The position numbers were made by a program, and so were the translations under genes. The notes under the pieces are model-generated. The model had not been told where the DNA came from and ran no database searches. It saw only the letters and a program-made list of their open reading frames with translations. Shown here piece by piece: positions 33,230 through 34,500 of a stretch of DNA of 36,067 bases (its first letter is position 1; the number at the start of each line of letters is the position of its first letter). This DNA is from a virus (taxonomy: Duplodnaviria; Heunggongvirae; Uroviricota; Caudoviricetes). Location of the stretch: the IMG/VR virus record IMGVR_UViG_2563366915_000004. One strand, written 5' to 3'.

Positions 33230-33281
33230 TGTTCAACTGTCGCCGGTTGTGACTGGTATTCTGCAACCGGCGCTCGTCTAA

Positions 33282-34476
33282 GGAAGGTGCGAATAAGCGG
33301 GGAAATTCTTCTCGGCTGACTCAGTCATTTCATTTCTTCATGTTTGAGCCGATTTTTTCTCCCGTAAATGCCTTGAATCAGCCTATTTAGACCGTTTCTT
33401 CGCCATTTAAGGCGTTATCCCCAGTTTTTAGTGAGATCTCTCCCACTGACGTATCATTTGGTCCGCCCGAAACAGGTTGGCCAGCGTGAATAACATCGCC
33501 AGTTGGTTATCGTTTTTCAGCAACCCCTTGTATCTGGCTTTCACGAAGCCGAACTGTCGCTTGATGATGCGAAATGGGTGCTCCACCTTGGCCCGGATGC
33601 TGGCTTTCATGGATTCGATGTTGATGGCCGTTTTGTTCTTGCGTGGATGCTGTTTCAAGGTTCTTACCTTGCCGGGGCGCTCGGCGATCAGCCAGTCCAC
33701 ATCCACCTCGGCCAGCTCCTCGCGCTGTGGCGCCCCTTGGTAGCCGGCATCGGCTGAGACAAATTGCTCCTCTCCATGCAGCAGATTACCCAGCTGATTG
33801 AGGTCATGCTCGTTGGCCGCGGTGGTGACCAGGCTGTGGGTCAGGCCACTCTTGGCATCGACACCAATGTGGGCCTTCATGCCAAAGTGCCACTGATTGC
33901 CTTTCTTGGTCTGATGCATCTCCGGATCGCGTTGCTGCTCTTTGTTCTTGGTCGAGCTGGGTGCCTCAATGATGGTGGCATCGACCAAGGTGCCTTGAGT
34001 CATCATGACGCCTGCTTCGGCCAGCCAGCGATTGATGGTCTTGAACAATTGGCGGGCCAGTTGATGCTGCTCCAGCAGGTGGCGGAAATTCATGATGGTG
34101 GTGCGGTCAGGCAAGGCGCTATCCAGGGATAACCGGGCAAACAGACGCATGGAGGCGATTTCGTACAGAGCATCTTCCATCGCGCCATCGCTCAGGTTGT
34201 ACCAATGCTGCATGCAGTGAATGCGTAGCATGGTTTCCAGCGGATAAGGTCGCCGGCCATTACCAGCCTTGGGGTAAAACGGCTCGATGACTTCCACCAT
34301 GTTTTGCCATGGCAGAATCTGCTCCATGCGGGACAAGAAAATCTCTTTTCTGGTCTGACGGCGCTTACTGCTGAATTCACTGTCGGCGAAGGTAAGTTGA
34401 TGACTCATGATGAACCCTGTTCCATGGCTCCAGATGACAAACATGATCTCATATCAGGGACTTGTTCGCACCTTCC
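33282..34476. mobile_element. IS5 insertion sequence (1195 bp) with terminal inverted repeats and 4-bp CTAA target-site duplication
   Basis: Left end GGAAGGTGCGAATAAG at 33282; right end CTTGTTCGCACCTTCC ending at 34476; CTAA directly flanks both ends (33278-33281 and 34477-34480); length is exactly 1195 bp. Confidence 0.9.
33428..34408 (-). CDS. insH: IS5 transposase InsH
   Basis: Track ORF 33428..34444; canonical 326-aa product from internal Met [64 protein letters not shown]... (DDE transposase). Confidence 0.9.
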
Positions 34477-34500
34477 CTAATATAAGAGATAAAGAAATCG

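Follow-up and report, generated by a model that had tools for sequence, protein, structure and literature searches.

A complete copy of the insertion sequence IS5 occupies the spacer between the exonuclease gene of the dicB operon and the xis-int genes of a full-length Qin-type prophage, and the sequence comparisons made in this study indicate that it got there by a genuine, very recent and private transposition. Recent transposition of IS5 together with a likely polar effect on xis-int is, in our estimation, the best explanation of this arrangement, with a probability of about 0.8. The insertion of IS5 into a prophage is in itself an ordinary and already well-understood kind of event. Insertion of IS elements in prophage excision and integration modules is a well-known route of decay, and IS5 is among the best studied of these elements. 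All coordinates given here refer to the window, which is the whole stretch of 36,067 nt that was analysed (record IMGVR_UViG_2563366915_000004).

The element lies at 33282-34476 on the - strand and a base-for-base comparison with the IS5A copy of E. coli K-12 MG1655 (IS5A/insH1, 273,955-275,149 of NC_000913.3) showed it to be complete at 1195 bp, with 1191 of the 1195 positions identical and 4 differences. In its inverted repeats and arrangement of genes it agrees with the K-12 copy. Annotated copies of IS5 in many complete E. coli genomes are 100% identical to it. Its terminal inverted repeats, GGAAGGTGCGAATAAG and the complement of GGAAGGTGCGAACAAG, are complementary at 15 of 16 bp and are the canonical IS5 pair, and the 16-bp imperfect repeat characteristic of IS5, GGAAGGTGCGAA(T/C)AAG, was found at both ends. 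Of its two ends the transposase-proximal one (IRL, 34476) faces xis and the transposase-distal one (IRR) lies at 33282. The transposase gene ins5A is an uninterrupted ORF on the - strand, coding for 338 aa from the first ATG (33428-34444) or for 326 aa in the form annotated in K-12 (33428-34408). Its product contains the Pfam domains DDE_Tnp_1 (5.3e-35) and DUF772 (3.7e-21) and departs from K-12 InsH1 by two residue changes, Y266S and R274K. The direction of ins5A is away from xis and antisense to the dicB operon. On the opposite strand, in the same orientation as xis-int, the ins5CB region (33503-34132, +; the ORF assignment is approximate) holds two ORFs, at 33503-33757 and 33764-34132. The ins5CB operon has been described from the strand opposite ins5A, with a promoter reported to be near-inactive (PMC11677980). 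On the grounds of length, repeats, an intact transposase and near or full identity to known copies, the element is therefore IS5 itself and complete. All the features by which membership of IS5 is judged, that is length and identity, repeats, DDE transposase and a 4-bp target duplication, were found in it. The preliminary description had recognised IS5 of exactly 1195 bp with both repeats and CTAA on each side, and with this both the sequence and the comparison with K-12 IS5A agree.

The two copies of CTAA that flank the element (left, 33278-33281; right, 34477-34480) fit the IS5 target consensus, which is C(A/T)A(G/A) (PMC11677980). The empty site was rebuilt by deleting IS5 and one CTAA, and the resulting 1200 nt served as query for a set of 5,426 complete E. 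coli genomes, many of which contain a 100% full-length match; in the matching genomes the genes are always annotated as exonuclease, excisionase family protein and integrase. In strain 118UI the flanks 26682-33281 and 34477-36067 adjoin and share four bases, equal to one CTAA, and in strain WP7-S17-ESBL-01 the segments 1-33281 and 34477-36067 adjoin with a 4-bp overlap, again CTAA. The single copy in the empty sites of these two strains establishes CTAA as a true target-site duplication. The check put forward for it, an alignment to strains lacking the insertion, has thus come out in its favour, with flanks that overlap by exactly these 4 bp in both strains.

Exonuclease gene and xis are separated by a spacer of 71 bp, in which the target lies, and no coding sequence is broken by the insertion. 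The target begins 49 nt past the exonuclease stop (33229). The xis ATG (34501) is 24 nt from the end of IS5 and 20 nt from the duplicated CTAA. An earlier placing of the insertion 21 bp upstream of xis is acceptable, as the last base of the target is at -21, and its placing between the dicB-operon exonuclease gene and xis-int was likewise correct, the exonuclease gene being the last gene 5' of IS5 and xis the next gene 3' of it.

Analysis of strains with the same prophage proved informative as to the age of the insertion. WP7-S17-ESBL-01 and the window align over 33,281 + 1,591 nt (34,872 bases) with neither a mismatch nor a gap, so that IS5 and its duplication are the sole difference across 36 kb. 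When a 2.4-kb region spanning the filled site was searched, IS5 was present at the site in none of the 5,426 complete E. coli genomes; coverage reached 80% in only three records, each of which has ISKpn26 at another position. Exact 36- and 40-mers across the junctions had no match in the GTDB species representatives or the JGI metagenomes. A further 80 related IMG/VR loci were fetched, and in none of the 78 that were readable at the site is the spacer interrupted. The complete identity to an empty-site strain and the absence of the filled site from all the collections searched point to an event that is both recent and private. The insertion had been described beforehand as recent and unrearranged, a view upheld by the perfect duplication and by the 100% identity of the flanks to WP7-S17-ESBL-01. 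A donor is also at hand in the lineage, since empty-site strains hold many IS5 copies (19 matches in WP7-S17-ESBL-01, 18 in NMBU-W13E19 and 17 in SCU-482) and at least one copy in each is 100% identical to the element in the window. IS5-rich genomes with the identical prophage are found under NZ_AP022173.1, NZ_CP043406.1 and NZ_CP053247.1 (17-19 matches each). These numbers suggest ongoing expansion of IS5 within the lineage that has the identical prophage.

The genes upstream of the insertion define the prophage type. DicA/DicC-type immunity, ydfA, DicF, dicB and ydfD, by which the Qin type is recognised, are all present on one strand, and the complete order on the + strand is DicA-like repressor gene, promoter-like site, ydfA, a 191-aa gene, DicF, dicB, ydfD, exonuclease gene, IS5, xis and int. 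In genomes with a 100%-identical prophage the next genes after int are rspB and rspA, and this is where Qin lies; the window itself ends at the int stop. At full length the identical prophages have terminase, portal, capsid, tail, lysis and Q-type antiterminator genes, and no replication genes are clearly annotated in them. Outside the operon, a DUF4209 protein of 595 aa is encoded at 24265-26052 (+), on the strand opposite to its neighbours and between the early-right region and hokD. Its gene has no counterpart in K-12 Qin; it resembles a moron or accessory gene and may serve in defence. Two leaders of the cspA thermoregulator type, at 16743-17128 and 19639-20031 (both -), belong to the Qin cold-shock paralogues cspI and cspB, and a Sok antisense RNA (23585-23759, -) lies beside hokD. 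The cspI/cspB leaders and Sok/hokD are typical Qin cargo.

The repressor gene (28469-28876, +) codes for a protein of 135 aa with a Pfam HTH_3 domain and 57% identity to K-12 DicA. That the operon is DicA-controlled, as had been stated, holds in so far as a DicA homologue is present; it is not K-12 DicA itself, having 57% identity and a different operator region. The immunity region (28293-28997) is heteroimmune with respect to K-12 Qin and its operator and promoter DNA is unalignable, and from about 29000 onwards the transcribed leader is about 99.7% identical to K-12. A consensus scan found a promoter-like sequence, TTGACG-17-TAAATT (28964-28992, +), between the repressor gene and ydfA and directly 5' of the ydfA leader that is conserved with K-12. 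By homology this sequence is a candidate for the early-left promoter, the equivalent of dicBp. Between ydfA and DicF a hypothetical gene of 191 aa (29226-29801, +) stands in place of ydfB and ydfC of K-12. The DicF small RNA gene (30062-30113, +) matches Rfam RF00039 at 72.5 bits, the gathering score being 48. For dicB (30288-30476, +) and ydfD (30473-30664, +) the RefSeq annotation was transferred from the 100%-identical prophage of WP7-S17-ESBL-01 and 118UI. The exonuclease gene (30758-33229, +; 823 aa; Pfam and RefSeq WP_000048333.1, 'exonuclease') is intact, codes for a C-terminal Rv2179c-like 3'-5' exoribonuclease domain (residues 642-813, E 1.6e-66, Pfam) and is the full-length counterpart of the ydfE pseudogene of K-12.

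The dicBF operon is polycistronic and under the promoter dicBp, on which DicA acts as repressor; in K-12 this repression is relieved by the Rem antirepressor, urea or heat, and mitomycin C fails to relieve it (PMC10448788). The window contains a rem gene (22967-23218, -). No peptidase or autocleavage domain was found by Pfam in the DicA-like repressor, which is HTH only, and this, taken with the failure of mitomycin C to induce K-12 dicBp, makes the SOS response probably the wrong trigger for excision of this prophage.

Downstream of IS5 both genes are intact. The xis gene (34501-34752, +) codes for 83 aa and belongs to the Pfam family DUF1233, putative excisionase (E 1.6e-31; WP_000005552.1, 'excisionase family protein'). 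Its product is only distantly related to XisR of Rac, the function of which has been shown experimentally (26% identity, E 2e-5), and the Pfam family is common to both. The int gene (34787-36067, +) codes for a tyrosine integrase of 426 aa with the Pfam domains Arm-DNA-bind_2 and Phage_integrase, 43% identical to IntR of Rac, and its DNA is 100% identical to intact int genes of other strains. Directly past the exonuclease stop is a stem-loop with the core GCCGGTTG-N14-CAACCGGC (33239-33274, +; predicted -17.5 kcal/mol) and no U-tract, in which a related prophage module has GCCAGTTG..CAACTGGC, equal to one compensatory pair from G-C to A-U. The dicB operon transcript could end or be processed at this structure. 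When the RNA of the empty site is folded, GCUCGUC (33270-33276) pairs with GAUGAGC (34500-34506) over the xis start codon, and IS5 puts 1.2 kb between these two arms. The 7-bp pairing may well be due to chance, the z-score of the fold being about -2 and the relatives too similar for covariation.

IS5 has left xis with 24 nt of native upstream sequence. The statement that the element separates xis-int from the upstream operon is therefore true in the physical sense, all but these 24 nt having been moved away. Within about 250 nt 5' of xis on the + strand of the filled site, neither standard nor relaxed scans found a promoter-like site. In the same 250 nt of the empty site the relaxed scan gave only two weak candidates, both of which lie within the 3' end of the exonuclease gene. 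A hybrid promoter composed of the IS5 end and the TAATAT that overlaps the target was also considered and was rejected, there being no acceptable -35 hexamer at 15-19 nt spacing. Terminator-like hairpins with a U-tract occur on the + strand near the end at which transcription would enter IS5, at about 33312-33361 and 33467-33518; they are weak, and such sequences are no more frequent in the region than in shuffled sequence (9 found, 10.3 expected). Terminator-like sequences have been reported in IS5, and the ins5A and ins5CB promoters are reported to be largely inactive (the former cited in, the latter from, PMC11677980).

These observations are best accounted for as follows. An active IS5 copy has very recently transposed into the CTAA of the exonuclease-xis spacer of a full-length Qin-type lambdoid prophage, leaving xis with what would be only its ribosome-binding region and with no promoter-like sequence either retained or created beside it. 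As no promoter-like sequence lies between IS5 and xis, transcripts of xis-int would have to cross the 1.2 kb of IS5, and would do so in the ins5A-antisense direction. Those coming from upstream would meet the two hairpin-plus-U-tract sites, and the internal promoters of IS5, reported to be almost inactive, would be of little help. By likeness to lambda it is suggested that xis-int are co-transcribed with the early-left operon, with which gene order and strand are compatible. Derepression would then yield less Xis and Int, the prophage would excise less readily, and the reduction in excision would represent one ordinary step of prophage decay. That xis-int have been uncoupled from the repressor-controlled early-left promoter, as the preliminary description expected, is by this analogy plausible, and we lean slightly towards a polar effect of the insertion on xis-int that lowers induction-coupled excision. 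Several considerations go against polarity, among them the stem-loop at 33239-33274, where on its predicted structure the operon transcript may be ended or processed before it reaches xis, and the ins5C and ins5B ORFs, which could shield an antisense transcript from Rho.

It may also be that the insertion is neutral, either because xis-int were never dependent on the operon, because transcription reads through IS5 or because the prophage was already defective; we regard this as conceivable but as having the odds against it. Independence of the operon might come from a weak promoter of their own, from control by host factors or from signals internal to int. The stable stem-loop between the exonuclease gene and xis, with its one compensatory change in the related module, is consistent with a boundary of this kind, and xisR of Rac is under the control of the host factors RpoS and H-NS (PMC4632033), not of the prophage repressor. 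In K-12 the dicBF transcript is defined only from ydfA to ydfE (PMC10448788), and the work there ends at ydfE because K-12 has no xis. Read-through is favoured by the finding that transcription in the ins5A-sense direction can run efficiently through the whole of IS5 (PMC11894529), although that is end-to-end transcription in the other orientation from the one needed here. The identical prophage has no obvious replication module annotated, and if the prophage was already unable to grow lytically the insertion would be of little consequence. The occurrence of the insertion in one genome only gives no sign of selection. Against neutrality it must be considered that any xis promoter that lay 5' of -24 is now 1.2 kb away, that neither the remaining 24 nt nor the IS5 end contains a promoter-like site, and that the strand entering IS5 carries terminator-like sites.

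The converse effect, activation of xis-int by IS5, would make excision rise or become constitutive, either because the ins5CB strand is transcribed outwards into them or because the element has the effect of a 'mobile enhancer' or anti-silencer. Activation of adjacent operons by IS5 is documented (PMC2753651, PMC11894529, PMC11677980), and as in bgl, glpFK, flhDC and fucAO the element is found here at CTAA just 5' of an operon, with the ins5CB strand directed at xis. The ins5CB promoter is reported to be negligible, however (PMC11677980), and the operons activated by IS5 keep a downstream promoter or make use of ins5A read-through (PMC11894529), neither of which applies in this case. The mechanism at fucAO depends on the ins5A promoter, with transcription leaving IS5 at the opposite end (PMC11894529), whereas here ins5A points away from xis and, given this orientation, transcription of the fucAO type would run antisense into the exonuclease gene and not into xis. 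Activation of the enhancer type needs a downstream promoter, and the 24 nt that are left have no promoter-like hexamers even at relaxed thresholds. We therefore regard activation as very unlikely. Misplacement of IS5 by the assembler is more improbable still, for while IS5 is multicopy in the lineage (17-19 matches per genome) and such repeats are a recognised cause of misassembly, here an exact duplication of 4 bp flanks the element, the duplicated bases fit the target consensus and are single in the empty site, and misassembly does not give this.

A further question is whether the junction is a recurrent target, which had been proposed on the grounds that K-12 Qin has IS2 at the equivalent position. 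The two prophages are alike in family, in the order dicA/dicC-ydfA-dicF-dicB-ydfD-exonuclease-int and in having an IS at the excision/integration end, and, to judge by the 100%-identical prophages, probably also in position beside rspB. In K-12, however, the arrangement is ydfE'-IS2E-'intQ, in which a 706-bp remnant of IS2 stands in place of about 2.2 kb, whereas in the window IS5 is complete and nothing is deleted; K-12 Qin also lacks the structural genes and the prophage of the window is full length. Homology to K-12 ends at 31524, 767 nt into the exonuclease gene, and restarts at 34908, 121 nt into int. What K-12 has thus lost is the last 1.7 kb of the exonuclease gene, the entire xis gene and ~120 nt at the start of int. 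Relative to the IS5 site the endpoints of its IS2 fall 1.75 kb on the upstream side and 0.43 kb on the downstream side. With about 2.2 kb including xis gone, the original insertion point of IS2 cannot be placed at the CTAA. The proposal of a recurrent target does not stand, since the endpoints of the IS2E remnant lie elsewhere and IS5 is at the site in none of the 5,426 genomes. We have likewise rejected the site as an insertion hot spot, no independent insertion having been seen there in the 5,426 genomes, in the GTDB or JGI collections or in the 78 IMG/VR loci; among the matches listed no other genome has any IS at the exonuclease-xis site.

Sequence variation at the target also bears on its use. 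Of the 78 readable IMG/VR loci about 65 have CTGA at the site, 8 have CTAA and 4 have a different downstream module. The majority allele at 33278-33284 is CTGATGT, compared with CTAATAT here, and CTGA is outside the consensus C(A/T)A(G/A). Since CTGA, the form in most relatives, is no target for IS5, insertion at this spot is open only to the less common allele of the prophage. A related element of the IS5 family, ISKpn26, has likewise hit the xis-int-rspB end of Qin-type or related prophages in PEC411, MB22, MMC-J-0020 and XJW9B277. It is a different element, about 91% identical to IS5, and no copy is at the exonuclease-xis spacer; the positions are inside int, in xis of a related prophage at potC, in rspB, or associated with a deletion from int to rspB. 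In the potC prophage of L004 (NZ_CP068041.1, 4592-6060) the exonuclease gene is shared and a different xis is split by ISKpn26. As far as the sequences go, this pattern fits a general IS-mediated erosion of the module and not a site-specific hot spot.

Past the annotation of one strain the significance of the insertion is small. The window and its empty-site counterpart do nevertheless make up a natural near-isogenic pair, with 0 differences over 34.9 kb besides IS5, which could be used to test the dependence of xis-int on the early-left promoter and to gauge the polarity of IS5 in the ins5A-antisense orientation. A more far-reaching reading, which we think unlikely, is that IS5 acts as a one-step 'lock' that abolishes induction-coupled expression of Xis and Int and so immobilises an otherwise complete and 100% conserved Qin-type prophage, in a lineage where IS5 is expanding. 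If this were true, the prophage on derepression would still express DicB, DicF and the lysis and structural genes, and the insertion would represent a natural, IS-driven change from an inducible prophage to one that is non-excising and either host-killing or domesticated.
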